Positions 6,676-57,716 are shown, numbered from the stretch's first letter. The stretch is 64,000 nucleotides of DNA from Dictyostelium discoideum (GCA_000004695.1 CM000155.2:2464001-2528000); one strand, 5' to 3'. A program made the numbers and translations. Notes: generated from the sequence alone by a model not told the origin.

Positions 6676-6679
6676 ATAA

Positions 6680-6685
6680 TTGTTG

Positions 6686-6726
<41 letters not shown>

Positions 6727-7299: not shown

Positions 7300-8812
<1,513 letters not shown>

Positions 8813-9464: not shown

Positions 9465-9597
9465 ATGAATTTGGCTAATATCTTAGATAAAGCTTTAGAA
9501 GAGCTTCGGGAGAAGGAATTAACTGATAGTTTGACACAACACGTTAATAATAATAATACTAATAATATTATTAATAGTAATAATAATAATAATAATA

Positions 9598-9659
<62 letters not shown>

Positions 9660-9864
9660 TCTGTGGAGGAATTTAGTTTTAAAAAACATTCTAAATATTT
9701 AAACAATTTTGAAGAATCAAAAATAAATGGGTCAACAGTAAAACAGTTTGAATTCTTTATGAAAAGTGTTTATTTTCACGAATTTGAACTCTCAAAAGAA
9801 GATTTAAATATCGTTTTTAAGTAATTATCATATATACAGTTTTAAGTTTCAAATCAAATACTAA

Positions 9865-9910
<46 letters not shown>

Positions 9911-10140
9911 TATTTCAAAATTTAAAAAATTCTATACTAAAATAGGCTATTATAAATGGGAGAGTTATATAGCTTGTAGATATCCAAAATATTTTTCATA
10001 TTTTCATAAACCAACTCGAATTAATGATATTATAGATTCAATTGTAAAAGCTATATTGCTTTCAAAACCATGTAAAGGATCATATAAATTTTTATTAGAA
10101 TTTATTGAAAGTGTTAATGATTATATATGTACAGTATGTA
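9465..10140 (+). CDS. Small hypothetical gene (MNLANILDKALEELREKELTDSL...poly-N...KYLNNFEESKINGSTVKQFEFFMKSVYFHEFELSKEDLNIVF), with a probable second exon at 9946..about 10140.
   Basis: ATG at 9465, with the ORF running to 9824. A candidate phase-1 donor A|GTAATT lies at 9822/9823 and a matching acceptor AAAATAG|GC at 9945/9946. Together they join in frame to ...SYYKWESYIACRYPKYFSYFHKPTRINDIID...LEFIESVNDYICT. The second exon ends at a GTATGT donor near 10140 and may splice on into the 10343 ORF. That linkage is unresolved because the phases do not match at the candidate sites I found. Confidence 0.35.
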
Positions 10141-14498: not shown

Positions 14499-14516
14499 AA
14501 TTTAGTTTGAAAAGAG

Positions 14517-14588
14517 CTCCCCATCCGGGAATCGAACCCGGGGTACCAGTGTGAGAGACTAGAGTGTTACCGACTACACCAATGAGGA
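14517..14588 (-). tRNA. tRNA-Glu (anticodon CUC).
   Basis: The minus strand reads TCCTCATTGGTGTAGTCGGTAACACTCTAGTCTCTCACACTGGTACCCCGGGTTCGATTCCCGGATGGGGAG. The 7-bp acceptor stem has one G-U pair. The D-arm is GTGT/ACAC. The anticodon stem is CTAGT/ACTGG with loop CTCTCAC. The T-arm is CCGGG-TTCGATT-CCCGG. The discriminator is G. Total length is 72 nt. Confidence 0.8.
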
Positions 14589-14760
14589 ATTGGATGAAAT
14601 TTGTAATAAAGTTCCTCTATAAAATTAATAGATAATAAATATGCATTCACATTACTAATTGTGTGACACACATTTAAATAATATAATAATAATAATACTG
14701 TCAACTCATTATAAATAATATAAATACTAAAGAATAATTTTATTAACAAAATTGGTAATT

Positions 14761-14833
14761 TAGAAACAATCTAAATTAAATAAAAAACCTCAATTTGTAA
14801 TGAAGGTTTTTTATTTAATTTAGATTGTTTCTA
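14761..14833. repeat. Perfect palindrome with 29-bp arms (tagaaacaatctaaattaaataaaaaacc / ggttttttatttaatttagattgtttcta) and a 15-nt loop.
   Basis: Arm 1 is 14761-14789, the loop tcaatttgtaatgaa is 14790-14804, and arm 2 is 14805-14833. It lies about 170 bp upstream of the tRNA-Glu 5' end, between the tRNA and the TRE remnants. Confidence 0.85.
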
Positions 14834-15132
14834 ACGATTAAAATGAGATATCTAAAGAAGCAACTAAAAATTGCGTTATTCGAAAAAAACAAACAACAAC
14901 AACAACAACAACAATCTCTTTTTTTGATTATTTCATTTTTCATATAAAAAGACATAAAACAAATAAATAAATAAAAAAAATAAACTATTTTAAAAAGCCA
15001 TCTTTTTACTTTATTGTAATTTATTATTTGTTTCGTTTTGAAAAAAAAAAATGAAAAAAATAATCAGATCGAAAAAAACAAACAACAACAACAATCTCTT
15101 TTTTTGATTATTTCATTTTTCATATAAAAAGA

Positions 15133-15168
<36 letters not shown>

Positions 15169-15459
15169 GAACCCAAGTTAATCAGAAAATTTCCAGATTT
15201 TTAACTTTTCAAAGTAAAATAAAAAAATTAGAAAGAAAATAAGATGAAAATTACAAACAACACCACAAATATTAAGCGACACAAATGCCTACGAAAAATA
15301 AGCGAAATTGTGAATAAAACTCAATTAAAAAAAAAACAATTCAAATACGTCATAAACATCAATCACGAACCAGACGATAAAATAAAAAAAGATTTAGAAA
15401 AAAGTTTGGACAAAAAAGATGTTTTAATCAAAAGTAATAATACAATTCAAAATTTGAAA

Positions 15460-15514
<55 letters not shown>

Positions 15515-15600
15515 CCCCTCTTTTAGAGACCCTGTAAAAAACTACAAATAAAATGAGATCTAGCATCTCAAGGAGAAGCAACTAATAATTGCGACTTCAT
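14832..15600 (+). mobile_element. Degenerate TRE5-A-like retrotransposon remnants upstream of tRNA-Glu. They comprise a solo 3'-module fragment (14832-14878), two A-modules (14879-15140), a B-module, the first 66 codons of ORF1 (from 15244) and a 3'-terminal module (15516-15597) without an A-tail.
   Basis: A-module sequence gatcgaaaaaaacaaacaacaacaacaatctctttttttgattatttcatttttcatataaaaag... occurs at 14879 and 15066. The B-module cctgagaacccaagttaatcagaaaatttccagatttttaactttt precedes ATG 15244 (MKITNNTTNIKRHKCL...). The ORF is broken at an A-run and joined to ggtaaacccctcttttagagaccctgtaaaaa...aaaatgagatctagcatctcaaggagaagcaactaataattgcg. Confidence 0.6.
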
Positions 15601-15675
15601 CTCTGATTTCTATTGAGATTAGTGATGAAGAATAAAAAAAAATCATTACAACATTTTTATTATTATTTTAAAAAA

Positions 15676-15748
15676 TGGAGAAGAAGGGTATCGATCCCTT
15701 TACCTCTCGCATGCTAAGCGAGCGCTCTACCATCTGAGCTACATCCCC
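15676..15748 (-). tRNA. tRNA-Ala (anticodon AGC).
   Basis: The minus strand reads GGGGATGTAGCTCAGATGGTAGAGCGCTCGCTTAGCATGCGAGAGGTAAAGGGATCGATACCCTTCTTCTCCA (73 nt). The anticodon loop is CTTAGCA, the D-loop is AGATGGTA and the T-arm is AAGGG-ATCGATA-CCCTT. There is one T-T mismatch at acceptor pair 6-67, which is why confidence stays below 0.8. Confidence 0.7.
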
Positions 15749-15864
15749 TTTGATGGAAAGTATTTTTTATTAGAAATACTCGTACGTTATTATCTGAGAT
15801 CGAAAAAAACAAACAACAACAACAATCTCTTTTTTTGATTATTTCATTTTTCATATAAAAAAGA

Positions 15865-15909
<45 letters not shown>

Positions 15910-15984
15910 GGAACCAAGTTAATTAGAAAATTTCCAGATTTTTAACTTTTTAAAGAAAAATAAAAAAGATAGAAAGAAAATAAA

Positions 15985-17319
15985 ATGAAAATCACAAACA
16001 ACACCACAAATATTAAGCAACACAAATGCCTACAAAAAATAAGCGAAATTGTGGATAAAACTCAATTAAAAAAAAAACAATTCAAATACGTCATAAACAT
16101 CAATCACGAACCAGACGATAAAATAAAAAAAGATTTAGAAAAAAGTTTGGACAAAAAAGATGTTTTAATCAAAAGTAATAATACATTCAAAATTCTCACA
16201 GACAGTATTAGTACAGTAATCTATTTTGTAAATATGTTTGATGCAGAATTAAAAGGACAATTTATAACCACTATAAGACCAAAAAATATGTATACAGATT
16301 TTGATTGGTATAAATCACTCACAGAAATAGAATGGGTAATAGAAAATGAAGGATGTAAACTAATTAAATCAGAAATTAAAGGCGAAACTCTAATTATCAA
16401 AACAGTGAAAAGAGTCGTAGAAGAATTTGACACTATCATTGAACTAGACAATCTAACATTAATTGGACACTCCAACAAAGGATGGAGAGATCAAACCTCA
16501 TTACCAGAAAATCAAGAAGAAAACAAAAATAAAAAACAATCAGATGAACAACAACCACAATCTACATCAGAACAAATACCAAAACAAGGAAAAAGAACAA
16601 TCATTATCCCACCAATCACATCCTCATCTAATGATAAAACATTTATGGCCCTAGATGATACAGCTCAAAAGGTAATAGATGCATCACTAGAAAACGTAGA
16701 TGAACTAACAAGAATAGAGAATGAGATCAATACACAATCGATAAACAATCAAGAAATTAAAACAAAATCAGAAAAACCTATCGAACCACCATCTCCATAC
16801 AATACACCAATAAAACAACACGGCGAAACAAAGAGACTAACAACGGAAGAAAAACTTAGAGAGGTAAATGATATCTTCGACTTCACCAGCCCAAACACTG
16901 ATGCAATAAGAAAAATAGAATTCCCACTTTCAATCCCTTCAAATCAATGGTTCTTCTCCTCTCCAATAAAACATATCATGAGTTTCAGCCCAACCTATGG
17001 TACACCATCGAAAATTATCGATTCACCAAGTAAATTGTTAAACACACCAAAAAACAAACAACAAGACAAAACAAACAGGACCAACAAAACACCAGTCAAA
17101 CCAAAATTGGGTGAATATGGACAAAAAAGCATAAAAACAAAAATGGATGAAGATATAGACAACTTCAACAAGGAAATTCTAAAACAAATCAGTAAATCAA
17201 AAAACCCCACAAACACACAAGACCAACAACACAATGAACAAAGTAAAGATCAGTTAGAAGACAAAATAAACCAGAAACTTCAAAAGGTAGATAAAAATCT
17301 ACCCCAAATAAAACTATAA
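15985..17319 (+). CDS. TRE5-A-like retrotransposon ORF1 protein (444 aa), intact.
   Basis: ATG immediately after the B-module. It is 99% identical (4 aa differences) to the copy at 18983..20317. Truncated 66-89-codon versions occur at 15244, 17699 and 20725. I recognise no conserved domain, as expected for ORF1 of this family. Confidence 0.7.
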   Translation: MKITNNTTNIKQHKCLQKISEIVDKTQLKKKQFKYVININHEPDDKIKKDLEKSLDKKDVLIKSNNTFKILTDSISTVIYFVNMFDAELKGQFITTIRPKNMYTDFDWYKSLTEIEWVIENEGCKLIKSEIKGETLIIKTVKRVVEEFDTIIELDNLTLIGHSNKGWRDQTSLPENQEENKNKKQSDEQQPQSTSEQIPKQGKRTIIIPPITSSSNDKTFMALDDTAQKVIDASLENVDELTRIENEINTQSINNQEIKTKSEKPIEPPSPYNTPIKQHGETKRLTTEEKLREVNDIFDFTSPNTDAIRKIEFPLSIPSNQWFFSSPIKHIMSFSPTYGTPSKIIDSPSKLLNTPKNKQQDKTNRTNKTPVKPKLGEYGQKSIKTKMDEDIDNFNKEILKQISKSKNPTNTQDQQHNEQSKDQLEDKINQKLQKVDKNLPQIKL

Positions 17320-17572
17320 AGAAAAACACAATAAGAATAGGTGTTTGGAACGTCCAAGGATCCAATACCATCCAATCTGCCAGCATAATAAACACCGTTT
17401 TAGACAACAACAAGCTGGACGCAGCACTTCTAACTGAAACAAATATAAAAACAAATAAAATTTACTCAATAAATCAACAATATAAAAACAAAATAACACA
17501 CCACGCACCAATTGATAAAACAGGACAAGGGGTGTCACAAATCATCATCAACACCCGCAATAGAACTTCCTA
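17300..17572 (+). pseudogene. 5'-terminal fragment of TRE5 ORF2 (APE-like endonuclease N-terminus), overlapping the ORF1 stop in the +1 frame and truncated after about 85 codons.
   Basis: ...KNTIRIGVWNVQGSNTIQSASIINTVLDNNKLDAALLTETNIKTNKIYSINQQYKNKITHHAPIDKTGQGVSQIIINTRNRTS*. The WNxxG...LxxETxI motif is characteristic of the L1/APE endonuclease domain. The RT domain is absent, as in the short TRE5-A.2-class copies. Confidence 0.55.
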
Positions 17573-17615
17573 AACATCTCAAAAAATACAATAATTCACT
17601 CAGTACTTTCTATAA

Positions 17616-17657
<42 letters not shown>

Positions 17658-17999
17658 CAAGTTAATCAGAAAAATAAAAAAGATAGAAAGAAAATAAAAT
17701 GAAAATCACAAACAACACCACAAATATTAAGCAACACAAATGCCTACAAAAAATAAGCGAAATTGTGGATAAAACTCAATTAAAAAAAAAACAATTCAAA
17801 TACGTCATAAACATCAATCACGAACCAGACGATAAAATAAAAAAAGATTTAGAAAAAAGTTTGGACAAAAAAGATGTTTTAATCAAAAAGACCCTGTAAA
17901 AAAAAAAAAAAAATAAAATGAGATCTAGCATCTCAAGGAGAAGCAAATAATAATTGCGTTATCCAATTCAAAAAAAAAAAAAGTACGTTATTATCTAGA

Positions 18000-18862
18000 G
18001 ATCGAAAAAAACAAACAACAACAACAATCTCTTTTTTTGATTATTTCATTTTTCATATAAAAAAGACTTAAAAAACAAATAAATAAATAAATAAACTATT
18101 TTAAAAAGCCATCTTTTTACTTTATTGTAATTTATTATTTGTTTCGTTTTGAGAATTTTGCGTAGCAAAATTTTCAAAAAAAAAGCAAAAAATAATCAGA
18201 TCGAAAAAAACAAACAACAACAACAATCTCTTTTTTTGATTATTTCATTTTTCATATAAAAAAGACTTAAAAAACAAATAAATAAATAAATAAACTATTT
18301 TAAAAAGCCATCTTTTTACTTTATTGTAATTTATTATTTGTTTCGTTTTGAGAATTTTGCGTAGCAAAATTTTCAAAAAAAAAGCAAAAAATAATCAGAT
18401 CGAAAAAAACAAACAACAACAACAATCTCTTTTTTTGATTATTTCATTTTTCATATAAAAAAGACTTAAAAAACAAATAAATAAATAAATAAACTATTTT
18501 AAAAAGCCATCTTTTTACTTTATTGTAATTTATTATTTGTTTCGTTTTGAGAATTTTGCGTAGCAAAATTTTCAAAAAAAAAGCAAAAAATAATCAGATC
18601 GAAAAAAACAAACAACAACAACAATCTCTTTTTTTGATTATTTCATTTTTCATATAAAAAAGACTTAAAAAACAAATAAATAAATAAATAAACTATTTTA
18701 AAAAGCCATCTTTTTACTTTATTGTAATTTATTATTTGTTTCGTTTTGAGAATTTTGCGTAGCAAAATTTTCAAAAAAAAAGCAAAAAATAATCAGATCG
18801 AAAAAAACAAACAACAACAACAATCTCTTTTTTTGATTATTTCATTTTTCATATAAAAAAGA

Positions 18863-18890
<28 letters not shown>
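18000..18890 (+). repeat. Tandem array of TRE5-A A-modules: four complete units of 199-200 bp (starts at 18000, 18198, 18398 and 18597) plus a partial fifth (18796-about 18868) ending in an A-run.
   Basis: Near-identical units gatcgaaaaaaacaaacaacaacaacaatctctttttttgattatttcatttttcatataaaaaagacttaaaaaacaaataaataaataaataaactattttaaaaagccatctttttactttattgtaatttattatttgtttcgttttgagaattttgcgtagcaaaattttcaaaaaaaaagcaaaaaataatca. The copy at 15797 has a single truncated unit. Confidence 0.85.
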
Positions 18891-18907
<17 letters not shown>

Positions 18908-18982
18908 GGAACCAAGTTAATTAGAAAATTTCCAGATTTTTAACTTTTTAAAGAAAAATAAAAAAGATAGAAAGAAAATAAA

Positions 18983-20317
18983 ATGAAAATCACAAACAAC
19001 ACCACAAATATTAAGCAACACAAATGCCTACAAAAAATAAGCGAAATTGTGGATAAAACTCAATTAAAAAAAAAACAATTCAAATACGTCATAAACATCA
19101 ATCACGAACCAGACGATAAAATAAAAAAAGATTTAGAAAAAAGTTTGGACAAAAAAGATGTTTTAATCAAAAGTAATAATACATTCAAAATTCTCACAGA
19201 CAGTATTAGTACAGTAATCTATTTTGTAAATATGTTTGATGCAGAATTAAAAGGACAATTTATAACCACTATAAGACCAAAAAATATGTATACAGATTTT
19301 GATTGGTATAAATCACTCACAGAAATAGAATGGGTAATAGAAAATGAAGGATGTAAACTAATTAAATCAGAAATTAAAGGCGAAACTCTAATTATCAAAA
19401 CAGTGAAAAGAGTCGTAGAAGAATTTGACACTATCATTGAACTAGACAATCTAACATTAATTGGACACTCCAACAAAGGATGGAGAGATCAAACCTCATT
19501 ACCAGAAAATCAAGAAGAAAACAAAAATAAAAAACAATCAGATGAACAACAACCACAATCTACATCAGAACAAATACCAAAACAAGGAAAAAGAACAATC
19601 ATTATCCCACCAATCACCTCCTCATCTAATGATAAAACATTTATGGCCCTAGATGATACAGCTCAAAAGGTAATAGAAGCATCACTAGAAAACGTAGATG
19701 AACTAACAAGAATAGAGAATGAGATCAATACACAATCGATAAACAATCAAGAAATTAAAACAAAATCAGAAAAACCTATCGAACCACCATCTCCATACAA
19801 TACACCAATAAAACAACACGGCGAAACAAAGGGACTAACAACGGAAGAAAAACTTAGAGAGGCAAATGATATCTTCGACTTCACCAGCCCAAACACTGAT
19901 GCAATAAGAAAAATAGAATTCCCACTTTCAATCCCTTCAAATCAATGGTTCTTCTCCTCTCCAATAAAACATATCATGAGTTTCAGCCCAACCTATGGTA
20001 CACCATCGAAAATTATCGATTCACCAAGTAAATTGTTAAACACACCAAAAAAGAAACAACAAGACAAAACAAACAAGACCAACAAAACACCAGTCAAACC
20101 AAAATTGGGTGAATATGGACAAAAAAGCATAAAAACAAAAATGGATGAAGATATAGACAACTTCAACAAGGAAATTCTAAAACAAATCAATAAATCAAAA
20201 AACCCCACAAACACACAAGACCAACAACACAATGAACAAAGTAAAGATCAGTTAGAAGACAAAATAAACCAGAAACTTCAAAAGGTAGATAAAAATCTAC
20301 CCCAAATAAAACTATAA
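18983..20317 (+). CDS. TRE5-A-like ORF1 protein (444 aa), second intact copy.
   Basis: It differs from 15985..17319 by four substitutions (D/E, R/G with V/A, NK/KK with R/K, S/N). It is followed by the same ORF2 5' fragment (20298-20570). Confidence 0.7.
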   Translation: MKITNNTTNIKQHKCLQKISEIVDKTQLKKKQFKYVININHEPDDKIKKDLEKSLDKKDVLIKSNNTFKILTDSISTVIYFVNMFDAELKGQFITTIRPKNMYTDFDWYKSLTEIEWVIENEGCKLIKSEIKGETLIIKTVKRVVEEFDTIIELDNLTLIGHSNKGWRDQTSLPENQEENKNKKQSDEQQPQSTSEQIPKQGKRTIIIPPITSSSNDKTFMALDDTAQKVIEASLENVDELTRIENEINTQSINNQEIKTKSEKPIEPPSPYNTPIKQHGETKGLTTEEKLREANDIFDFTSPNTDAIRKIEFPLSIPSNQWFFSSPIKHIMSFSPTYGTPSKIIDSPSKLLNTPKKKQQDKTNKTNKTPVKPKLGEYGQKSIKTKMDEDIDNFNKEILKQINKSKNPTNTQDQQHNEQSKDQLEDKINQKLQKVDKNLPQIKL

Positions 20318-36883: not shown

Positions 36884-37240
36884 ATTGTAGAAAATAAATA
36901 AAATAAAAAAAATAAAAAAAAAATAAAAAAAAAACTGAAATAAAATGTAAACTTTTTTTAAAAAATAATTTACATTTTAAATGTTTAAAATAAAAAAAAT
37001 TATTTAAAATTAAATTAAAAAATTAAAAAAAATTAAAATAATCCTTTTTTTCATCATGTTTTTTAACGCATTTTTTTTTTTAATTTTTTTTTAATTTTTT
37101 TTAATTTTTTAATTTTACATTGCACCAAAACGTTGGGCAGGGGTTTTTTTTTTTTTTGAAAATATTTAAATCAACTTTTTGAAAAAAAATTTTTAAGAAT
37201 TTTTTTTTTTTTTTTTTTTTTTTTTCCCCCCCCCCAAAGG

Positions 37241-37282
<42 letters not shown>

Positions 37283-37319: not shown

Positions 37320-42713
<5,394 letters not shown>

Positions 42714-43399: not shown

Positions 43400-43867
43400 C
43401 TGATTGTTTAACTATTCTTTGGATTTCTATGAAGAAAAAAAAAAAAACAAGAAACCTATTTTTAAATTTTGAAATTAATTATTGGAATAAAAAAATAAAA
43501 AAAATAAAAAAAATAAAAAAAATAAAAAAAATAAGTGAAAAAAATAAGTGAAAAAAAAAAAATGAAAATAAACTAATATTTTCACTTTGACAAAGATTTT
43601 TATTTATATCTTTTTTTTTTTTTTTTTTTTTTTTTTATATATGAATTAAATACAATTTGTACAAAAAAGTTTATTTATTTTTTTTTTTTTTCTTTTTTTG
43701 TTGATATTAAAAAAAAAGTTTAAACGATTGAATTTGAGGGGGAGGGGGAGATATAATAATTAATTGGTAATAATTAATTACCAATAAAAAAGGATAAGCG
43801 CATATTTAAAAATGTTATTGAGAATATTGATTGAAGTTGTTGAAAAGTTTATACATTATTATTACTA

Positions 43868-43913
<46 letters not shown>

Positions 43914-44061
43914 TTTTTTTTTTTTTTTTTTGCTTAATATATGATTGATTATTATTATTATTATTATTTGAATTTTTTTTTGATTTTTTTTTTTTTTTTA
44001 CAAAATTCGGTAAAGATGTGAAAATAAAGAATCGGAAATTTTTTAAAATGTAATCGAGGAA

Positions 44062-44748
44062 TTAATTGCCAATACATTTAGTACCAGTTAAATTAATTCC
44101 ATTTCTCATTTTAAAGTTTTCCAACCAACCACTACTAGCCTTGAAAGTGTTATTATTTAATTGTTTTGATAAATCGAGAGCAAACTTTTTAATGGTTTCA
44201 CCGCTAACCATTTCACCATTAGCACGAGCTTGATTAATTTTTTCAATTATTAAATTTTCTTGTTCAATTGAGAAGGAGGCTTTTGGACCTTTGTGTAATT
44301 TCTTTAAATTCTTTTTACCAAAACTTCTATATTTATCAATGTTTGAAATCCAACGAGAAATAATACTACGAGAGATATGATATTTCTTTACAACATGATT
44401 CATACCAAACTTATTTTTCTCTTCAAGAATTTCCAACTTTTTATACACCTCATATGATTTTCTTGGTTTCTTACCATTAATAGCGGCAGCACTAACTCTT
44501 TTACTCACTTTACCACTATTTGTAATTTGGTTATTAATATTATTATTATTATTATTATTAAATTCACTACCACTACAAATTGGTGAATTTGGAACTTGCA
44601 TCATTGGGCTACTTGGTTCATCTCTTCTTGATGAACAATCATCACTATCATATTCACTATCATCATCTGAAAAATTATTATTGTTATTATTATTATTGTT
44701 ATTATTATTATTATTATTATAATTATTATTATTATTATAATCAATAAA

Positions 44749-44796
<48 letters not shown>

Positions 44797-45321
44797 AAAA
44801 ATATTATTATTAAAATTATTATTATTTGAGGATGGAACTTTAACTGGTGAAGAAGAAACTATTGGTGAATGAACTGGAGTTGTTTGAGTTGAATAATAAT
44901 AATTTGGAGAGGTACTTGTTGGAGATGATGGTGATGATGGTGTTTTGGTTTTTAAGCTTGCAATTGTATTTATAATGGTTTCATCTGATGTATCTTCAAT
45001 AAGTGATGATTGATCTGAATTATTATAGGATTGAATATACATATTTACATTATTAAAACTACTATTTAAACTATTATTTTTAATTGAAACTCTTGAAATT
45101 TTATTGAAATTATTATGATTATTATTATTATTATTATTAAAATTATTATTATTAAAATTATTAAAATTATTATTATTATTATTATTATTATTATTTGTAT
45201 TGTTATCTGAAATATTTATTATTTGTATTAATGGTGTTGTTGTTGTTGTTGTTGTTGTTGTAGTTGGTGTTGGTAATGTAATTGGTTTTGAAATATTATT
45301 TAAAATATAATGTAATTCCAT
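44062..45321 (-). CDS. Poly-N-rich protein with C-terminal psq-type and CENP-B-type HTH DNA-binding domains (pogo/Tigger-derived DNA-binding module), 419 aa.
   Basis: The C-terminal 150 aa read KRVSAAAINGKKPRKSYEVYKKLEILEEKNKFGMNHVVKKYHISRSIISRWISNIDKYRSFGKK...KGPKASFSIEQENLIIEKINQARANGEMVSGETIKKFALDLSKQ...FKASSGWLENFKMRNGI. This matches the CENP-B N-terminal and HTH_Tc5 patterns (two helix-turn-helix units, GWxxxFxxR). The N-terminus is low-complexity N/T/S-rich. Confidence 0.5.
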
Positions 45322-46603
45322 TTTTTTTTTTTTTATTTTTTTTTTTTTTTTTTTATTTATTTATATACTATTAATTATTATTATTGAAAAATTATTTTAT
45401 GTGTAAAAATTATTACTATTTATTATTTATTGTGTATGAAAAAGAATTATCTGAATGATAAAATTATTTTTTTTTTTTGAATTGTTTTTTTTTTTATATT
45501 TTGTAAAAGGTAAAAAAAAATAAAAATTAAAAAAATAAAAATTAATTTAATTGAAAATTTGAAAATGTAGACTCTGAAAAAATTGAGAAAAGGGAAAAAA
45601 AAAAATAAAAAAAAAATTAATATAAAATTATTTAATATTTGAAAAGGTAATGTTGAAGTGGAATAATTTTTTTTTTTTTTAAAATAAAATTAAATTAATT
45701 AAAATAAAAAAAAAACTGAAAATAATGTTTTTATATAAATGATGGATGAAATAAAATTTGTTGTTTTAGGACAAAAAAAAAAAGAATTTTAAAAAAAAAA
45801 AAATAAAAATAAATTTATAAAATTAAAAAAAATAAAAAAAAATAAATTAAAAAATCAAAATTAAATTTTTTTTTTTTTTGTTTTTTTTAATTTCATTCCA
45901 AAAACAAAAGAATTTATTTCGATGAATTGGTTTCGAGCAAGAAAAAAAAAAATTTTAGGTGTGAAAAAACAGTGTTGAGAAATCTTTAGAAAAAAATTGC
46001 ATGTGCATGATTGTGTGGTGTAAAAATGTGGGATTTTTTTTTGAATTAACCCGCTCATTCACAGAGTTTTCGATTAATTTTATTTTTTTTTGATGCAAAC
46101 GAAAAAAAAAAATAAAAAAAAAATAAAAATAAAAATAAATTTAAATTAAAAAAAAAGATTGTTTGGCGAGCTCGCCGATGCGTGTTTTTTTTTTGGGGTT
46201 TTTTTTTTTTTTTATAAGTATTTTTAATTTTATGCAAAGGAGCTTACTCTTATTTTTAAAAATAGTAATTTTTTTAAAAATTTGAGAAATATAAATAATA
46301 AAAAAAAATTATACAATTTTAACAAAGATTTTTTTATTTTTTTTTTATTTTTTTTTTATTTTTATTTTTTTTTGACAATGCAAATTTAACAAATCATTTT
46401 TTATGTTGGTTTTTTACAGTCAATATTATGACTGTATTAATGATTTTTTTTAATTTTTTTTTTTAATTTTTTTTAATTTTATTTTTTATTTTTAATTTTT
46501 TTTTTTTTTTTTTTTTTTTTTTTGTGTAAACAACAATTTTTTGAAAAAATAATCACGATGGCAAAAAAAAATTTATGAAATCGAATGATATTTTTTTTTT
46601 TTT

Positions 46604-46642
<39 letters not shown>

Positions 46643-46864
46643 GTTTAAGAAAGACTTCAATTTCGAAGAACTTGTGTAATAAAGATATTTTTTTTTTTTT
46701 TTTGGGATAGGGTACCAAATCTTTATTATTTTTATTATTTATTATTTTTTATTTTTTTTTTGGGGAGGTGAAAAAAAAAAAAAAAAAAATTGAAAGAAAA
46801 GAGAAAAAAAAAAATAAAAAAAAAAAATTTTTTTACAATTTCTGATGGAAAGAGATAAAAAAAG

Positions 46865-46930
<66 letters not shown>

Positions 46931-46943
46931 CTATTAATTGTTT

Positions 46944-47019
<76 letters not shown>

Positions 47020-47662
47020 ATTTAAGGAATAAAACAACATCAATTGCGTGTTGTTATTGCAGTTGTCATAAATTCTACAATAAACATATTTTTTTTATTT
47101 TTTTTTTTATTTTATCTGTACAAGAGTTGGTTGCTATGTTGTGTGGTGTTTAATTATGTGTCACTTTACATTGTTTTTTTTTTTTTTTTTTTTAATATTA
47201 TTTATTGTTATTTGATTTCCTATTGTAATTTTTATTGTGTCAAATAAAAATAGATATTACAAAGGTTTTTTTTTTTTTTTTTTTTTTTATAAAAAAAAAA
47301 GAAATTACTTACTTTAAAAAAAAAAAAATAAAAATAAAAATAAAAATTAAAAATAAAAAAAAAATAATAATAATAATAATAACAACAATATATAAACGGT
47401 TCCAGTAAAAACATTGATTTTTTTATTTTTTTATTTTTTTTTTTTTAATAGTGTGTGATTCTATTATTAGAACCAATGGTTCATATTTTTTTTTTTTTTT
47501 TTTATATTATAGGTGGGGGTAGATAAAATAAATTCCATTAGGTGATAGTTATTGTGGGTGAGTGGGTGTTATAGTGTGTGATAATTGTGAAGTTATATAT
47601 GGCGATGATGGAAATAGTGTTCGCTCCATACAAAAATTAAAATAATAATAATTATTATTATC

Positions 47663-47696
<34 letters not shown>

Positions 47697-47723
47697 CATC
47701 AAGAGAAGAGTTTGTTAAAATTT

Positions 47724-47757
<34 letters not shown>

Positions 47758-47869
47758 TTTACTTACAATGAAAGCGTAGATTGTTGTATTACTTTGTAGA
47801 ATATGTTGCAAAAAAAAATGAAATATATTTTTTTTTTTTTTAAGCTCTATTAGTCAGACTTAAAATTAA

Positions 47870-47908
<39 letters not shown>

Positions 47909-47958
47909 AATTAAAATAAATAAAATAAAATAATTAAATAATTTAATAAATAGATTAA

Positions 47959-48009
<51 letters not shown>

Positions 48010-48010
48010 A
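47870..48010. repeat. (AAAT)n microsatellite of about 30 units in two blocks.
   Basis: The sequence aataaataaataaataaataaataaataaataaa occurs at 47870-47910 and again at 47958-48010. Confidence 0.9.
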
Positions 48011-49436
48011 AATTAATTAATAAATAAGTGGATTGGAAATTATTGTGGTATTAGATTTTTTTTTTTTTTTATAGTATTTTTGTTGACGTTGAAAAAATAA
48101 ATGTGTTATTATTAAAAAATATTTATTTTATTATTTTGTTTTTTTTTTTTTTTTGAAAGAATTTGAGAATATTAATAGATATTATTAAATATAGAATTTG
48201 TTGATTTTATTTTTTTTTTATTTTTTTTTTTATTGGGTGGAGTAGTGATATTGTGGAGTAGTTATATTTAATGTTTTTTTTTTTTTTTTTTTTTTTTTTT
48301 TTGATTGTGTGGTGCAAAGAATTTTTTTCTTATAATTTGGTGTTGGATAAATTAATAAATAAAATAAATAATTTTTTTTGTTTTTTTTTTTTGGTTGCTT
48401 AAATAATTTTTGTTTTTAGATTAATGGTTTGTTTGTTGGTTTTAAAGAGAAAAAAAAAAAAAAAAAAATCAAATTTATTAATATTTTTTTTTTTTTTTTT
48501 TAAATATACAAATAATTTAATAAAATAATAAATAAATAAAAAAAAATAATAATAAATAAAAAAAAAAAAAATATGTCTATTTAAATAAATATTAATTTTT
48601 TTTATTTTTTATTTTTTTTTTTTAATAAATTAAATTTGGGTAATTGGGTGTTGATAATATTATACTCATGACTAAAATAATAACATGAGTGAAAAGAAAG
48701 AAACTGCGATGGTGATGATGATGAGGAAAAATAATATTATGGTGTGGGTGAGTGGGTGTGTGGGGTTTTAAAAAAAAAAAAAAAAAGTATGTGCGATACA
48801 TACAATGTTGAGTTTATAAACTCAAAAAAAACAACACAACAACAATAAAAACAACACCATTAACAACAACAACAACAACAACAAAAACAACAAAAACAAC
48901 AACAACAAAAACAACAACAACAAAAACAAAAATAAGAATAATAATAACAATAATAAAATTTTAACAATAACAAGCAGCAACAAAAAAAATAACACCCACA
49001 CACCAACCACATACACACTACTGCAACAATAGATAGATATGGAAAGAATATGAAGGTAACTTTAGAACCAAAATTTTAAATGCATCAACAATGTCGATAT
49101 ATATCAAAATTAAGTGAAATTTTTGTGTTGACACAAGAAAATGAATGAAAGTAAAAACCACTCGCACAATAACAAAAAAATAAAAATAAAATAATAAAAA
49201 AAATAAAAAAATAATAAAACAAAAATAAACACACACACCCACACACCCACCACGGTGTTATTGTGAAGTGATGAATGATTCAATATAATACAAACTCTAT
49301 TTTTATAGTTCCTTTATGAAACAAATGTGTGGTGAATTTTTTTTTTTTATTATTTTTATTTTTTTTTTGTTATTCTATTAATATTTTTTATTATATTAAT
49401 AGTGGGCGATATATTATGAAAGGGGTTTTTCTTTTA

Positions 49437-49502
<66 letters not shown>

Positions 49503-50490
49503 CAACCAAAATAATAATAATAATAAAAAAACACAATAGTAATAAAAAAAAAAACAATAGGAAAATAATAAAAAATTAAGTGATTTTATAATTATTATTG
49601 GTATTATTAAATTAATTAATATTTTTCATTACATTTGTTTTAAACCTACTACTTTTACCGCTACCGTTTTTTTTTTTTTTTTTTTTTTATTTTTAAAATA
49701 TTTCGCGATATAAAATTTGTTACTACTAATTTTTTGGGGCAAGATATAAAAATAGAATATTATTATTATTTTTATTGTCAAGTAAAAAAAAAAAATTATT
49801 ATTAATAATAAAAATAATAATAATAATATAAAATAAAAAATTTAAATTAAATAAAATAAAAATCAAATTAAATAAAATAAATGTTTAAAATTAGGATATT
49901 TTACTAGGATTTATTTTTTTATTTTTTTATTTATTTATTTATTTTTTTTTTTTTTTTTGAAAGAGTGAGAGAGATAAAGAATGATAGAGAGTGAGAGATA
50001 TGTATGTGTGTTGTGCAAATAAAAATTTATTTTTAATTTTTTATTATTGAAATATAATATATGATGATGATGGTGATGAAGATGATGATGAATATGATGA
50101 ATTTTATTTGTATGACTATAAATATGATGCTATGGAGAATAAAATTTTATATAGTTACCAAAAATAGATTTTAATAAATTAATATTTGACTTTCTTATTG
50201 TTATTTTATAATAGTTGTTAAATTTATATTTTTTTTATATAATTATTATTATTTTTTTTTTTTTTAATTTATTTTATTTTTTATATATATATATAATTTT
50301 TATATTTTTTCCAAAGGATCCTTTGGAATGGGCGAATTTATTTATTTATTTTGAATTAGTTAGTTTATTGGTAGTTTGAGATTTTTTTATTTTTTTATAT
50401 TTTATTTTTTTAAAGTGAGACCATTGAAAATTATTGTGTTTGGTCAGGTTATTGGGTTAGTGTGTTTGTGAGTGAGTGAGCTTGTGATTT

Positions 50491-50526
<36 letters not shown>

Positions 50527-52468
50527 TATATTATTATTATTATTTGAAAAACTTAGAGGAGAGAGAGAGAGAGATATTAATTTAAATTTAATTAATTAAA
50601 ATGAAAAAAGTTTTTTTTTATTATTTTAATTTATATCTTTTTTTTCTTTAAAAATTTATTTTTAATTCTTTAATTAATTATTTTTATTATTATTTTTTTA
50701 TTATAAATTTAATTTTATTGATAGTTTGAATTTATTTCTTAATATTTTACTAAACTATTATTTTATTAGATTTATAGTGTTATGTATAATGTGATGAAAA
50801 GCCAGTACTTTTAGTATTTTTTTTTAATAAAAGTTCTATTTTTGTGTTGATTAATCAAGGAATTAGATTTATAGATAAAATAATAAATGGCGTTTTTTTT
50901 AAATTATTTGTTTTTTTTTAAAATTAAGTATATAAGAAACCAATTTTTAAATTAATAAAAATAAATAAATAAATAAAAAAAAAATTAAAATTTAAATAAC
51001 CATGATTATAGTTGTAAAATTTTAGGTGATTTCAATTCAGTTTATACTATTTTTGATTCTATAATTATTGTTTATCGTAAGAACGTGGTGGTGTTTGTAT
51101 AAGTAAAAATACTTGGAAAAAGGTGTTATATATTTAATTAAAAAAAAAACAAAAATAATTAAAATAAATAAAAATTTAAAAATACAAGTGTCAGGTAGTG
51201 GTGGTGGGGGGTGGTAATAATTATGTACACAGTTGACGTTGACTCAAATGAAGAAAGGAAAAAAAATAATCAATATAAATTATATATACATATATAATTT
51301 TGTTTTTTTACAAAACAAATTTGTTTTTGAGTAATTTTTAAGAATGGGGTGAGTACCTTATTTAAAGAATTATAAATATATAATTAAAATATATATATAT
51401 ATTTTTTTTTTTTAAAAAAAAAATAGATTATCTCATAATGTTTAGATAGTAAAATACAAAAAACAAAAAAAATATTTAAAAAAGCCTTTATACACATTGT
51501 TAATCCCAGTGTGTGTGTGTTTATATGTGTTAATTATTATGATGATAATAATTATAAATATTATGTTCACATATTTTAATTGAATATTTACAAATATTCC
51601 TATTTAAAAATAGATTTGCTTTAATTTTTATTGACTTTTTTTTTTCTTTATTATTTTACAAGGTGATTTGGCGTCATTGTGAGTTTTTTCACCTTGTTAA
51701 ATTTATATCAACACTAATCAATTTGTGTGTGGTAAAAGATTGTGTGGAAAAAAAATAGAAATTTGATTTTTTTATTATGTATTTATTTAAGTTTTTTTTT
51801 AAATTTTTTTTTTTTTTTTTTTAAAAACAACACACCCATACCACTAAAAATGATATATCTAATGATTTTTTTGTTGAATTTTATTCAGCTAATAGAAGAA
51901 ATCCTTTTTTTTTTTTTTTTTATTAAAAATTATTTCAAATAATGGTTTACTTGTATTTGATATACAAATTCCTTCCATTTTTATCTTAATAGATCAATAG
52001 AAAATAATAATAAAATTTGACATTTAAAAAAAAAAAAAAAAAAAAAATTATTTATAAATATATATTTGATTTAATTGGTGATTTAATAAAAAAAATATAT
52101 ATTTATCAATAACAAACTCCAGCTTTATTTTGTAATTGGCCTTTTTTTAAAATTTAAGTGAATTTCTGTATGTGTGAATAAAATTATGAAAAACAGAGTG
52201 AATGAGGGTATTTATATAATGAAAAACAAACACACTCACACACCTAAACAATTTTTACACTCTCGAAATATTGTGTTGTGGTTAAATCATATTGTTTTGT
52301 TTGATTTTTTTTATTTTAGAAAACCGTTAAAATTATTTTTATTTTATATTACCTTTTATTCCACTCTTTATATATATGAGTTTTATTTGGGTGTACACGA
52401 GTATGTGATATGATGGGAAATCAATTGATTATTCTAATAGTGGTTTTCCAATTTTTTTTTTTTTTTTT

Positions 52469-52511
<43 letters not shown>

Positions 52512-53022
52512 ATTAAATTTATATATATCCACTGATATTGTTTTATCTTTTATTTTAAAATTGCGCCATACAAACAAAAAGAAAATAAATAATTAAATCT
52601 AAATACCAACCAACTAACACATTTTATTACAAACCTTTTTTTTTTTATTTTTTCGAAATTATTAACAATTTAAGGTTTTAAATCTCTTTTTTATTCCATG
52701 ACATAATTTATGTTTTTCAATAATTTAATGTTGATAAAACTGTTAATCAGCGATTTAAAAATAAAAATAAAAATAATGTTGATTATTGGGATTCCAATAA
52801 AATTTTAATAATAAATTTAAAGGAATTCAATATTTTTTATTTTTTTTATTTTTATTATTATTTTTAATTTTTTTATTAGAAAATATTTATGTATCAGTTT
52901 ACAAATATTAAAAATTTATTTATTATTATTATTATTATTTTCATTATTATTTTTATTATCATTATTATTAATATTATAATTTTTTTTTTTTTTTTTTTTT
53001 GTTTTTTTTTGTTTTATTTTAT

Positions 53023-56139
<3,117 letters not shown>

Positions 56140-56282: not shown

Positions 56283-57716
56283 TTATTCATAATAATAACA
56301 AAATGAATCGAAAATATAAAATGATTTTTTATAAATTATACCAAATTGATTTGAGGCTTTTGTTCTCATTGTGATTACTATACCATGAGATTTTTGAACA
56401 GAGGTAGCAATTAATTGAATTGATGGTTGTCCTAATTCAACATCATAGCATTGAATGGAAGCTGTTGAGGCTAGATGTTTATCTAAACGAATGAAACTTG
56501 GTTCTTCAGTTAACAATTTCGATTCTGGTAATAATTGTAACATTCTACCAATGACATCATTACTATATTCATTTAGCCTAATAATACCTGCTGATGAGAT
56601 ATCTTCAACTGCAATTCTTACACAGTATGGTAAATCATTAGTATTCTTGGTTGTATCTTTGAATGATATCATTTCACCATTTGGTTTAATTGATGCGAGT
56701 TCAAATGATTTTGGTATATTTAAATTATAGCCAACCATTAAATTATCGAATATATCATAAGGTAATGGTGATCTTGCTTTTAGTATATGTCCACTTGTTA
56801 CACCTAAATAATTGATTAGTCTATCGAATACTTTAACATAGTAAGCTTTATCTCCATTTGGTACTCTAAATGATAATCTTATCCATTGATCGAATTGGAA
56901 TAAAACATCTCTACCATTGTCACTATCATACTGTTTGGCTACAACCACTAACTTTTTACCATTACCATCACGATAATTCAAATTGATTTGAATGTCTTTG
57001 CATTCATCACCTAAACTACCATCATTTGTAAATTCACTATCACTTTTTGTAATACTAAATACTAAACCTCCATCAAGCACCACCTTTTCATCCTTATAAA
57101 TATGTTGTATATCTCCATTAATTTTCTTTGACCAATCTTTTGGGTAAAAATACTCTAAATATATTTCATTTGAATTTGATGTTGATGACGATGACGATGA
57201 TGATAATAATAATGAATTCATTGATAATTGTAAAAATTTATAACCTTTACATTTAAATAGATTAAAAGAACTAATTGCATGATCGTGAACATATAAATGT
57301 TGTTGAAAGAATTCGTCTGCTTTTGATGTATATGAAATTATATAGGCATGACCTTGATCGAAAAAGAAGGATTGTTTGGATTTCATATGATCATTTGGTA
57401 AGTAATAAATAATTGAACGACCATTATATTTGCCACCAATTAATTCGTCAGAGAAACTTGATGGTTTTGCACCAACTCTTAATATTTCACCCATTATCAT
57501 TTGTTGAAACTGATCAACTTTCACCAATGATGTATCCCTTGAAAACATTGATAAATCTATAATTTGAATATTGAATGAAGGATAAGTTAATTCTTCTTTT
57601 TCTTTAAATCCAACTACAAAAAATGAATTATCTGTTTTTATCCAATTACTCGGATAATCACATGAAAAACCATAAATTTGTGATTCATATGTTGAAAATG
57701 TTATAATTTCTTCCAT
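56283..57716 (-). CDS. Hypothetical protein of 477 aa.
   Basis: Single ORF with an ATG at 57716 (MEEIITFSTYESQIYGFSCDYPSNWIK...). Composition is moderately complex, with a poly-S/D linker. I recognise no family. It lies 140 bp upstream of cog4 on the same strand. Confidence 0.5.
   Translation of the reverse strand: MEEIITFSTYESQIYGFSCDYPSNWIKTDNSFFVVGFKEKEELTYPSFNIQIIDLSMFSRDTSLVKVDQFQQMIMGEILRVGAKPSSFSDELIGGKYNGRSIIYYLPNDHMKSKQSFFFDQGHAYIISYTSKADEFFQQHLYVHDHAISSFNLFKCKGYKFLQLSMNSLLLSSSSSSSTSNSNEIYLEYFYPKDWSKKINGDIQHIYKDEKVVLDGGLVFSITKSDSEFTNDGSLGDECKDIQINLNYRDGNGKKLVVVAKQYDSDNGRDVLFQFDQWIRLSFRVPNGDKAYYVKVFDRLINYLGVTSGHILKARSPLPYDIFDNLMVGYNLNIPKSFELASIKPNGEMISFKDTTKNTNDLPYCVRIAVEDISSAGIIRLNEYSNDVIGRMLQLLPESKLLTEEPSFIRLDKHLASTASIQCYDVELGQPSIQLIATSVQKSHGIVITMRTKASNQFGIIYKKSFYIFDSFCYYYE

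Follow-up and report, generated by a model that had tools for sequence, protein, structure and literature searches.

A motif-dense 7.7-kb spacer of Dictyostelium discoideum that looks like a developmental control region in the 5′ flank of a CENPB-type HTH gene

The spacer at positions 45322-53022 of a 64-kb stretch of chromosome 6 of Dictyostelium discoideum AX4 (the whole stretch analyzed, hereafter the window) is interpreted, with a probability of about 0.6, as a large domain of non-coding, cis-regulatory DNA that flanks, on the 5′ side, a conserved gene for a CENPB-type HTH protein (the HTH gene). The spacer (~7.7 kb, 15.9% GC) extends from the ATG of the HTH gene to the stop codon of cog4, forming the 5′ flank of the former and the 3′ flank of the latter, and the HTH gene is its likely target. 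Because GBF-type motifs are densely packed in it, the same packing is found at the corresponding position in the distantly related Polysphondylium violaceum, and long non-coding RNAs (lncRNAs) very probably lie in it, the spacer looks, as judged from its sequence, like an unusually large developmental control region of the G-box/CAE class and not like junk. The window contained exact matches to DDB_G0293092, DDB_G0293142, DDB_G0293178, and DDB_G0293108, and DDB_G numbering placed it at roughly 2.45-2.53 Mb of chromosome 6. The features are listed in Table 1.

Table 1. Elements of the spacer, flanking genes, and candidate lncRNA positions (window coordinates; lncRNA positions are inferred)
Feature	Position	Strand	Remarks
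HTH gene, 419-aa ORF	44062-45321	-	HTH_Tnp_Tc5, E=3e-14 (CENPB-type)
Motif-free, very AT-rich proximal 690 bp	45322-46011	-	Upstream of HTH-gene ATG
DDB_G3969939 lncRNA	45810-46505	+	chr6:2509810-2510505; divergent from HTH gene
TGTGTGGTG copy 1	46012-46020	+	Reads CACCACACA on HTH-gene sense strand; G-box/CAE closest to gene
TGTGTGGTG copy 2	47140-47148	+	
DDB_G3970253 lncRNA, 4161 nt	47281-51442	+	chr6:2511281-2515442
GGTGGGGGT and bipartite G-box GTGGGTGAGTGGGTGT	47512-47569	+	16-mer copy 1; pair of half-sites separated by 10 nt
GTTGACGTTGA, ACGT-core word, copy 1 of 2	48082-48092	+	Copy 2 at 51232-51242
TTGGGTGGAG half-site and TGTGTGGTG copy 3	48234-48314	+	
DDB_G3969975 lncRNA, 1094 nt	48590-49684	-	chr6:2512590-2513684; would span A/C-rich block
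Degenerate bipartite box TTGGGTAATTGGGTGT; 16-mer copy 2	48636-48765	+	Extended copy 2 is GGTGTGGGTGAGTGGGTGTGTGGGG, with 6 overlapping half-sites
(AAC)n / ACAACAACAACAAAA microsatellite	48830-48994	+	Much of A/C-rich block
Two opposite-orientation CA-rich elements	48992-49253	-	CACCCACACACCAACCAC at 48993, CACACACACCCACACACCCACCAC at 49230
TGTGTGGTG copy 4	49326-49334	+	
GTGTGTTGTG half-site	50005-50015	+	
GGGTTAGTGTGTTTGTGAGTGAGTGAGCTTGTG island	50454-50486	+	(GAGT)n-like; outside strict half-site consensus
GGTAGTGGTGGTGGGGGGTGG (4 half-sites), then GTTGACGTTGA copy 2	51194-51242	+	
Distal group	51510-51838	.	(GT)5 at 51510; TTTGTGTGTGG...ATTGTGTGG at 51724-51747; CAACACACCCATACC at 51830, opposite orientation
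Final two half-sites	52238-52394	.	CTCACACACC at 52238, TTGGGTGT at 52388
cog4 last exon	53023-53619	-	COG4_C, E=1e-36

Matches to the GBF half-site consensus, (T/G)G(T/G)G(T/G)G(T/G), derived from the published GBF response element (PMC2257962), were counted throughout the window. Although the spacer occupies 12% of the window, it held 44 of the 72 matches (5.7 per kb, vs. 0.5 per kb in the remainder), and dinucleotide shuffles of the spacer gave 2.4 ± 1.6 (maximum, 10 among 300 shuffles). The 44 matches were grouped into 18 clusters spread over 6.4 kb, four of which (47553-47569, 48741-48765, 49229-49251, and 51724-51747) had at least two non-overlapping half-sites, whereas elsewhere in the non-coding DNA of the window each spacer had approximately 0-1 clusters, and G/C skew was absent. 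The recurring words TGTGTGGTG (four copies vs. 0.09 expected, separated by 1128, 1166, and 1020 bp) and bipartite GTGGGTGNGTGGGTGT were absent from the rest of the 64 kb, and when up to 3 mismatches were allowed, the bipartite 16-mer had nine matches, all within the spacer (0.03 expected). Spacing of the islands was irregular overall (CV, 0.91); the spacer may owe its growth to tandem duplication of a ~1.1-1.2-kb module, from which the motifs alone survived.

The GT/CA-rich islands described in a first-pass annotation of this DNA were recovered. The 16-mer GTGGGTGAGTGGGTGT, reported there as occurring twice, was located at 47554 and 48744, on the plus strand only; the flanks of the two copies of this exact G-rich word (16-17 nt) could not be aligned, which indicates that the motif itself was retained. 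The other islands were present within a few bases of their reported positions (CACACACCCACACACCCACCACGGTG at 49232, GGGTTAGTG...CTTGTG at 50454, and GGTAGTGGTGGTGGGGGGTGG at 51194), and the A/C-rich block (48790-49300) was composed of 56% A, 18% C, and 8% G, partly as (AAC)n microsatellite. The proposed resemblance to G-box/CAE motifs is supported by the published GBF consensus and the strong enrichment, except for the island at 50454, which misses the strict half-site consensus. Several of the islands resemble microsatellites ((GT)n, (GGT)n, or (GAGT)n), and an origin by slippage is possible.

The nearest half-site was found ~690 bp from the HTH-gene ATG and most were 1.8-7 kb away, farther than the few hundred bp from the start site expected of a GBF-regulated promoter. 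We know of no documented regulatory element acting from up to 7 kb from its promoter in the compact Dictyostelium genome.

In P. violaceum, the only comparison species in which cog4 and the HTH gene are syntenic, the gene order was the same as in D. discoideum, namely COG4, a 3.1-kb gene-free spacer, and the HTH gene. Within its 20.7-kb locus, 45 of 59 half-sites, forming 21 clusters, were concentrated in 4 kb (6001-10000, comprising the 3.1-kb spacer and the last cog4 introns), at a density of 11.3 per kb vs. 0.84 per kb outside; shuffles of the 4 kb gave 5.4 ± 2.4. The layout also agreed, with about 690 bp of AT-rich DNA upstream of the HTH gene followed by CA-rich clusters, and in both species the DNA adjoining the gene was C/A-rich on the HTH-gene sense strand. 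Both spacers were enriched in the words GTGTGGTG, GTGTGGT, and GGGTGTG, which were (nearly) absent outside the spacers. The two spacers had no alignable sequence, no common ORF, and no conserved structure block, and tblastx yielded low-complexity matches only. Retention of density, vocabulary, and polarity without alignment is what turnover of binding sites would be expected to leave under selection, and such conserved packing is the signature of a putative conserved cis-regulatory domain.

These comparisons also bear on the idea that the spacer is neutral, expanded low-complexity DNA in which slippage produced functionless microsatellite-like GT/CA islands. Much of the spacer is indeed homopolymer or microsatellite (A161, T80, (AAAT)40, (AAT)45, (AAC)34), several islands are simple repeats such as (GT)5, (GGT)n, and (GAGT)n, sequence-level conservation with P. 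violaceum is lacking, and polymorphism showed no detectable constraint, in a strain comparison without power (16 substitutions, 0 in motif clusters vs. 0.5 expected). However, other spacers of the window have neither the clusters nor the skew, the exact G-rich word occurs twice between non-alignable flanks, and the recurrence of enrichment, vocabulary, and polarity at the syntenic P. violaceum position makes independent neutral accumulation improbable. We therefore regard this explanation as distinctly improbable.

The first-pass annotation had proposed a large developmental control region for either flanking gene. The CENP-B-like gene was supported by the syntenic P. violaceum packing and its polarity. 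For cog4 the proposal did not hold, since the spacer lies 3′ of this gene and Heterostelium album had no such cluster downstream of cog4, so that the cluster is not a cog4 feature. In Tieghemostelium lacteum, the promoter of the HTH-gene orthologue was compact (577 bp); its only intergenic CA element lay ~250 bp from the transcript start, and its motif content exceeded that of shuffles only marginally; the large cluster is thus not required for the HTH gene across Dictyostelia.

The spacer had been described as about 7.7 kb free of convincing protein-coding genes, with low-complexity pseudo-ORFs only, in a genome whose intergenic regions are typically under 1 kb. ORF, codon-usage, and second-strain annotation data agreed with the former, and the published average of about 700 bp (PMC5295588) with the latter. 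The only ORF of at least 80 aa was a poly-Phe artefact, every ORF of at least 45 aa was of low complexity, and no stop-free stretch of at least 25 codons had window-like codon usage, the best being an (ATG/GAT)n-type repeat. A second strain assembly (GCA_054883475.1) carried the spacer at 99.2% identity, which rules out an assembly artefact, and its independent annotation contained no gene call within the corresponding 7.6 kb. An unannotated multi-exon or small-protein gene would be compatible with RefSeq numbering, which from XP_629326 (DUF4504 gene) to XP_629333 (PsbP-like gene) allows six models where five genes are evident, and with the precedent of the sigN family of small, developmentally regulated proteins with G-box promoters (PMC2257962). 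We consider it highly improbable in view of the ORF and codon-usage results, the low-complexity tblastx matches, the zero calls in two independent annotations, and the absence of the ORFs tested from protein and gene-call collections. Known structured ncRNA families (Class I RNAs, snoRNAs, snRNAs, and DUSE-driven genes) were rejected as candidates: Rfam and tRNA searches of the spacer gave no match (best Rfam score, snoR28, E=0.89, under the gathering score), and DUSE-like words (CCCAYAA, ~60 nt upstream test) numbered 5 in the window vs. 12.7 expected, the sole one inside the spacer being a G-box reversed.

A heterochromatic or transposon-derived block, also suggested earlier, is hardly credible. 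The spacer is long and AT-rich, and the C-terminal CENPB-type/HTH_Tnp_Tc5 DNA-binding domain of the flanking HTH gene is of transposase (Tc5/pogo) ancestry. However, this gene is a single host gene conserved across genera (77-78% identity of the domain in P. violaceum and T. lacteum), and the spacer was devoid of ORF remnants of transposase, RT, or gag, of LTR, TIR, or satellite structures, and of similarity to the TRE5-A copies of the same window; its repeats were A/T homopolymers and microsatellites only.

Three intergenic lncRNA models have been catalogued at chr6:2,509,810-2,515,442 (PMC5295588 File S4/S6). To accommodate all three, at least 5.6 kb of gene-free DNA is required, which in the window only 45322-53022 provides; we are therefore rather confident that they map to the spacer, and the earlier suggestion that it hosts a non-coding RNA is very probably right. 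Their positions in Table 1 assume a window offset of 2,464,000, which equals 77 x 32,000 and falls among the offsets that would fit, and the position of DDB_G3969939 shifts by up to +1580 or -488 bp over the allowed offsets. At these positions, DDB_G3970253 would begin where a T25 run stops, this run following a TATA-like AAATAAAAATAG, and a G-box would lie ~140 bp upstream; the GC content of the models would be 16-21% vs. 10-17% for the uncovered parts, compared with published values of 17% for lncRNAs and 13% for silent spacer (PMC5295588). A boundary/mappability test did not tell the candidate placements apart.

The region 45322-48770 contained 368 G vs. 129 C, whereas other spacers of the window had near-zero asymmetry; the excess was larger than the contribution of the boxes alone and would fit a strand-specific constraint. 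The only segment of the spacer with C>G was 48771-49260 (G 36, C 88). This kb-scale asymmetry, together with the lncRNA models, two of which lie on the strand opposite the HTH gene, and the enrichment of lncRNA genes at large-scale chromatin loop anchors in D. discoideum (PMC11754127), would suit an autonomous lncRNA locus, made up primarily of one or more non-coding RNA genes. These would include a GU-rich transcript of 4.2 kb from the plus strand and one from the minus strand that overlaps it, the G-boxes would act as promoters of these RNAs or as RNA-level motifs, and the HTH gene would not be a target. We regard this as possible but unlikely, since no Rfam family and no sequence or structure block conserved with P. 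violaceum was found, typical Dictyostelium lncRNAs are very scarce (median, 1 RPKM; PMC5295588), the placement of the models in the spacer is probable and not certain, and a promoter-linked role would equally account for the polarity conserved with respect to the HTH gene.

In the preferred reading, a cis-regulatory domain of the HTH gene, the spacer would act as a homotypic cluster of ~18 G-box/CA-rich-element sites across 6.4 kb, to which a GT/CA-box-binding developmental transcription factor would bind once induced. Once occupied, the sites would activate the HTH gene and also the production of non-coding transcripts starting inside the domain, which are very probably the three lncRNAs of the catalogue. 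Among candidate binders GBF ranks first, with binding, timing, and transcriptional effect all presumed, and DimB or another factor could bind the putative sites in its place. The binding protein, developmental expression, controlled gene or genes, and exact lncRNA placement are what we infer in this scheme. A bolder version, which we hold to be quite unlikely, is a conserved multi-kb enhancer-cluster and lncRNA hub, in which the ~18 GBF-type sites nucleate a developmental transcription hub. If true, no earlier locus-control-like element would be on record for Dictyostelia, and conservation of this one would reach back to the split of the group 4 and violaceum lineages; it would exert a long-range effect on the HTH gene and possibly on neighbours (such as the Tag-family protease/ABC-transporter gene), yield a 4-kb GU-rich lncRNA bearing the same motifs, and might anchor the large-scale lncRNA-associated chromatin loops of D. 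discoideum.

Among known systems, the spacer resembles intergenic lncRNA loci of D. discoideum (PMC5295588) in being wholly intergenic, without an ORF, and of higher GC content than silent spacer. It differs in the length of its candidate 4.2-kb model (median of such loci, 628 nt) and in having three overlapping or adjacent candidate models in one gap, and a link of such loci to a dense, evolutionarily conserved motif cluster was previously undescribed. CCCCAC-type words are the DimB (bZIP) sites of the ecmA and pspA promoters (PMC3253789), and several islands (those at 47513, 48760, and 51205) contain GTGGGG/CCCCAC, but most islands are of the GTGTGG/GTGGGTG type, and DimB sites are described as single or paired and not as arrays (PMC3253789).

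Many copies of one site type over kilobases are also seen in animal homotypic site clusters and locus-control-like regions, and, as in animal enhancer clusters, position and content are conserved where the sequence is non-alignable; internal non-coding transcription, a property of such clusters, is very probable for the spacer. Unlike animals with such clusters, Dictyostelium has ~0.7-kb spacers. To our knowledge, no distal enhancers have been documented in Dictyostelium.

GBF-dependent G-box/CAE promoters of post-aggregative Dictyostelium genes (cotC/SP60, cprB, and the sigN family) have in common with the spacer paired half-sites in either orientation, an upstream region that is CA-rich when read on the sense strand of the gene, and, in cotC, with its multiple GBF sites (PMC3253789), and sigN (PMC2257962), several sites each. 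In characterised GBF promoters, ~2-4 sites lie no more than a few hundred bp from the start site, whereas the spacer, a putative member of this class by its motifs and linked to an uncharacterised HTH protein, has ~18 clusters over 6.4 kb, the nearest being ~690 bp from the ATG.

The region considered here, a gene-free spacer of 7.7 kb at 45322-53022 of the window from chromosome 6 of Dictyostelium discoideum AX4, is bounded by the ATG of the HTH gene and the stop codon of cog4, and therefore forms the 5′ flank of the former and the 3′ flank of the latter. We read it, with a probability of about 0.6, as a large cis-regulatory domain that is non-coding and lies on the 5′ side of the HTH gene. 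The region is non-coding, enriched in recurring motif words and strand-asymmetric, and its position, density, polarity and vocabulary are kept in Polysphondylium violaceum. DDB_G0293092, DDB_G0293142, DDB_G0293178 and DDB_G0293108 were located in the window by exact protein matches (AX4 chromosome 6, 3,602,379 bp). The product of the HTH gene is a conserved, uncatalogued and putatively DNA-binding protein; CENPB is placed among the families 'not in Dictyostelia' in the dictyostelid transcription-factor census (Table 1), and the Psq list of that census contains Ppal genes only (PMC6873476).

DDB_G identifiers are not positional here, DDB_G0293108 (PsbP-like, 56283-57716) lying 22 kb beyond DDB_G0293178 (33885-34904); RefSeq XP numbers apparently are, and the interval from the DUF4504 gene to the PsbP-like gene has room for one AX4 model beyond the five evident genes. 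Genes for tRNA-Glu(CUC) and tRNA-Ala(AGC) adjoin a 444-aa ORF that is present as a tandem pair (14516-20317) and has at least 17 near-identical family members genome-wide; we take this arrangement to be typical of tRNA-targeted TRE5-type retrotransposons. The neighbouring 1752-aa gene (37320-42713, plus strand) encodes a fusion of a subtilase (Peptidase_S8) with an ABC transporter (ABC_membrane and ABC_tran). Developmental proteins of the Tag (tight-aggregate) type in Dictyostelium have this domain arrangement, which makes the gene a candidate tag gene, and a T10-C10-A40 tract (37216-37280) lies about 95 bp upstream of its ATG. Its identification as DDB_G0293184 was rejected, as that gene carries a kinase annotation. 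Assignment of DDB_G0293186 (+6.3 log2 in multicellular stages) and DDB_G0293188 (-2.8) (PMC8094536) as the flanking genes of the region was abandoned, because DDB_G numbers are non-positional and the 1752-aa neighbour is not DDB_G0293184. In a GtaC ChIP-seq/RNA-seq study, cog4 (DDB_G0267960) appears in one gene list of supplementary file 3 (PMC4506546).

Features of the region and its surroundings (window coordinates; lncRNA positions are predicted at an offset of 2,464,000)
Feature	Position	Strand	Details
444-aa ORF, tandem copies	15985-17319 and 18983-20317		multi-copy family member
HTH gene	44062-45321	-	419-aa ORF; C-terminal CENPB-type/HTH_Tnp_Tc5 DNA-binding domain, E=3e-14
cog4 last exon	53023-53619	-	COG4_C, E=1e-36; stop codon is the far boundary of the region
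TGTGTGGTG copies	46012, 47140, 48306, 49326	+	exact word
GTTGACGTTGA (11-mer)	48082-48092 and 51232-51242	+	two exact copies, both in the region
Segment	45322-48770		G 368, C 129
Segment	48771-49260		G 36, C 88; C>G block breaking the G>C asymmetry
Segment	49261-51800		G 287, C 118
DDB_G3969939	45810-46505	+	chr6 2,509,810-2,510,505
DDB_G3970253	47281-51442	+	chr6 2,511,281-2,515,442; 4161 nt
DDB_G3969975	48590-49684	-	chr6 2,512,590-2,513,684

The GC content of the region is 15.9%, and at 7.7 kb it is much longer than the average Dictyostelium spacer, which measures about 700 bp (PMC5295588). Its sole ORF of at least 80 aa was a poly-Phe read-through of an A-tract, ORFs of at least 45 aa were low-complexity without exception, and none of the stop-free stretches of at least 25 codons resembled the window's genes in codon usage. 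The spacer is present at 99.2% identity in a second strain (GCA_054883475.1), whose independent assembly and annotation contain no gene calls there; the two assemblies differ at too few positions for polymorphism to serve as a test of constraint. The ORF, codon-usage and second-strain checks thus bear out the first-pass annotation, which had seen no convincing protein gene in about 7.7 kb, and a protein-coding gene hidden in the region is very improbable, a coding signal not having been found. No D. discoideum RNA-seq (Logan) contigs are on record via the region's small ORFs; such contigs exist for one of the neighbouring genes. No tRNA was detected in a scan of the region. A C/D-box-snoRNA-like match to snoR28 (50087-50146, plus strand; 24 bits vs a gathering score of 45, E=0.89) sits within an (ATG/GAT)n-like repeat and is most likely due to chance. 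The repeat finder returned A/T low-complexity families only. A heterochromatic block had been offered as one explanation of the region; neither features of that kind nor those of a transposon block were found, and this reading is scarcely credible.

Sites were scored with the response element published for GBF, (T/G)G(T/G)G(T/G)G(T/G) (PMC2257962), referred to here as the half-site. Of the window's 72 matches, 44 fall in the region, which makes up 12% of the 64 kb (5.7 per kb vs 0.5 per kb in the rest of the window), compared with 2.4±1.6 and a maximum of 10 in 300 dinucleotide-preserving shuffles, and the matches form 18 clusters spanning 46012-52394. The proposed resemblance of the islands to GBF-type G-box/CAE motifs therefore holds, and all four motifs quoted in the first-pass annotation were recovered within a few bases of their reported positions. 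Among them, the 16-mer GTGGGTGAGTGGGTGT occurs exactly twice (47554 and 48744); the flanks of the two copies do not align, so that the pair is not what is left of a recent duplication. Further words are confined to the region: TGTGTGGTG occurs four times, always on the plus strand (0.09 expected), and the bipartite box GTGGGTGNGTGGGTGT matches nine times with up to three mismatches (0.03 expected). For GTTGACGTTGA, the expectation across the whole window is 0.5 matches when one mismatch is allowed. The ACGT core of GTTGACGTTGA is bZIP/CRE-like, and GAACCAATGGTTC, a perfect 13-nt palindrome with a CCAAT core (47470-47482), lies about 70 bp upstream of the first copy of the 16-mer.

Spacing of the clusters is irregular overall (CV 0.91). 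Copies of TGTGTGGTG are near-evenly spaced (1128, 1166 and 1020 bp; P about 0.004, post hoc), and the 16-mer lies at similar distances, 414 and 438 bp, within the second and third of the successive units anchored on this word. An old tandem module of about 1.1-1.2 kb may possibly lie behind this spacing; the units have only motifs in common, and the lag spectrum shows no dominant period. The plus strand is markedly richer in G than in C over 45322-51800, whereas the window's other spacers show near-zero skew, with the exception of 43400-44061. The latter spacer, just past the HTH gene, has a skew of +0.44. The asymmetry of the region exceeds the contribution of the G-boxes alone. It is interrupted by a single C>G block (48771-49260). 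The A/C-rich block noted at the outset is confirmed by base composition (56% A, 18% C, 8% G); about a third of it is an (AAC)n microsatellite.

For cross-species comparison, P. violaceum, Tieghemostelium lacteum and Heterostelium album were used, as homology searches returned no proteins from the genus Dictyostelium. P. violaceum and T. lacteum retain the HTH domain at 78% and 77% identity, respectively, which marks the gene as a conserved host gene rather than a transposon in decay. Gene order is preserved in P. violaceum (COG4, a gene-free spacer of 3.1 kb and the HTH gene, all on the same strand), and the spacer together with the last two cog4 introns holds 45 of the 59 half-sites of the 20.7-kb locus (5.4±2.4 in shuffles; 11.3 per kb vs 0.84 per kb), arranged in 21 clusters. 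In both species the sense strand of the HTH gene is C/A-rich in the adjoining 2-3 kb, and about 690 bp immediately 5′ of the HTH-gene ATG is AT-rich and motif-free. Among over-represented words, GTGTGGTG has four copies in each species and none outside; GTGTGGT and GGGTGTG show a similar pattern. The two spacers share no alignable sequence, no common ORF and no informative k-mer blocks beyond (GT)n. The last two cog4 introns of P. violaceum (6120-6236 and 6368-6772 of the locus sequence L004) are full of G-box/CA-rich words, so that the motif domain reaches into the cog4 gene body in this species; one of these introns interrupts what is an unbroken exon in D. discoideum.

The sites have thus kept their type, density, polarity and position although the sequence around them cannot be aligned, a pattern of the kind that binding-site turnover under selection produces. 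Neutral low-complexity expansion would instead require independent accumulation in the same spacer of two genera, which is improbable; the P. violaceum result and the contrast with the window's other spacers both speak against it, and we regard it as unlikely. In T. lacteum the HTH gene is not adjacent to cog4, and RNA-seq contigs of the HTH gene begin 68 nt upstream of its ATG. Its 577-bp promoter contains a single CA element in intergenic DNA, located about 250 bp from where the transcript starts and only marginally above shuffles. Since three of the five upstream matches fall within the 3′ part of the adjacent gene's coding sequence, T. lacteum was downgraded as support for a cluster travelling with the HTH gene. 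No motif cluster follows cog4 in H. album. These two species mark the large array as a feature of the D. discoideum/P. violaceum lineage, associated with the HTH-gene side and not with cog4. Of the two genes for which a control region had been envisaged, the HTH gene is accordingly favoured by the P. violaceum packing, and cog4 is disfavoured by H. album.

Three intergenic lncRNA models lie close together on chromosome 6 in the catalogue of Rosengarten et al. (Files S4 and S6), with no further lncRNAs at 2.18-2.60 Mb (PMC5295588). The models are wholly intergenic by the catalogue's rules (PMC5295588), so that the gap holding them must be free of genes over 5.6 kb or more, and the region is the one gap in the window able to do so. 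The window's gene identifiers (0293092-0293178) fall between DDB_G0293054 (2,404,735) and DDB_G0293310 (2,747,762), which places the window at roughly 2.45-2.53 Mb, and the offsets (chr6 coordinate minus window position) that fit the models to the region span 2 kb and include 2,464,000, a multiple of 32,000 (77 x 32,000). On these three grounds the catalogued lncRNAs very probably belong to the region. The earlier idea of a non-coding RNA host survives in this form; no Rfam family scored above its gathering threshold in the region. At an offset of 2,464,000 the models have a GC content of 16-21%, vs 10-17% in the uncovered parts, and the 4.2-kb lncRNA would start where a T25 run ends, with a TATA-like element before it and a G-box about 140 bp upstream. 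A GC-skew argument for placing the minus-strand lncRNA was dropped, because the window's ORFs show no consistent sense-strand skew. That the region is an autonomous lncRNA locus, with the G-boxes as its own promoters, overlaps with the cis-regulatory reading and is a possible but considerably less probable account.

Under the cis-regulatory reading, the homotypic array of G-box/CA-rich elements would be occupied by a developmental GT/CA-box factor, which would thereby activate transcription both of the HTH gene and of lncRNAs starting within the array; bound factor, developmental timing, target gene(s) and lncRNA placement are parts of the scheme that we infer. GBF is the best candidate, since the sites match its consensus and the cotC promoter provides a precedent for multiple GBF sites (PMC3253789). 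Words of the CCCCAC type are DimB sites too (PMC3253789).

The array extends over 6 kb, is built from a single developmental site type and has kept its position and content in a second genus; the region is probably the source of one of the organism's longest lncRNAs. To our knowledge, Dictyostelium gene regulation has been studied almost exclusively on compact promoters of up to 2 kb; the region is thus a concrete case in which the enhancers of a compact protist genome may act at a distance or in clusters and in which regulation may be linked to lncRNAs, and the CENPB-type HTH protein is flagged as a likely developmentally controlled, putative DNA-binding factor. Among known classes, GBF-dependent G-box/CAE promoters come closest: the region shares site type, paired half-sites and enrichment with them, but most of its sites are 1.8-7 kb away, unlike the usual proximity to the start site. 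The description also fits intergenic lncRNA loci, and the layout is similar to that of animal homotypic site clusters. We would place the region in the G-box/CAE regulatory class, as a member of unusual size and not as a new kind of element.
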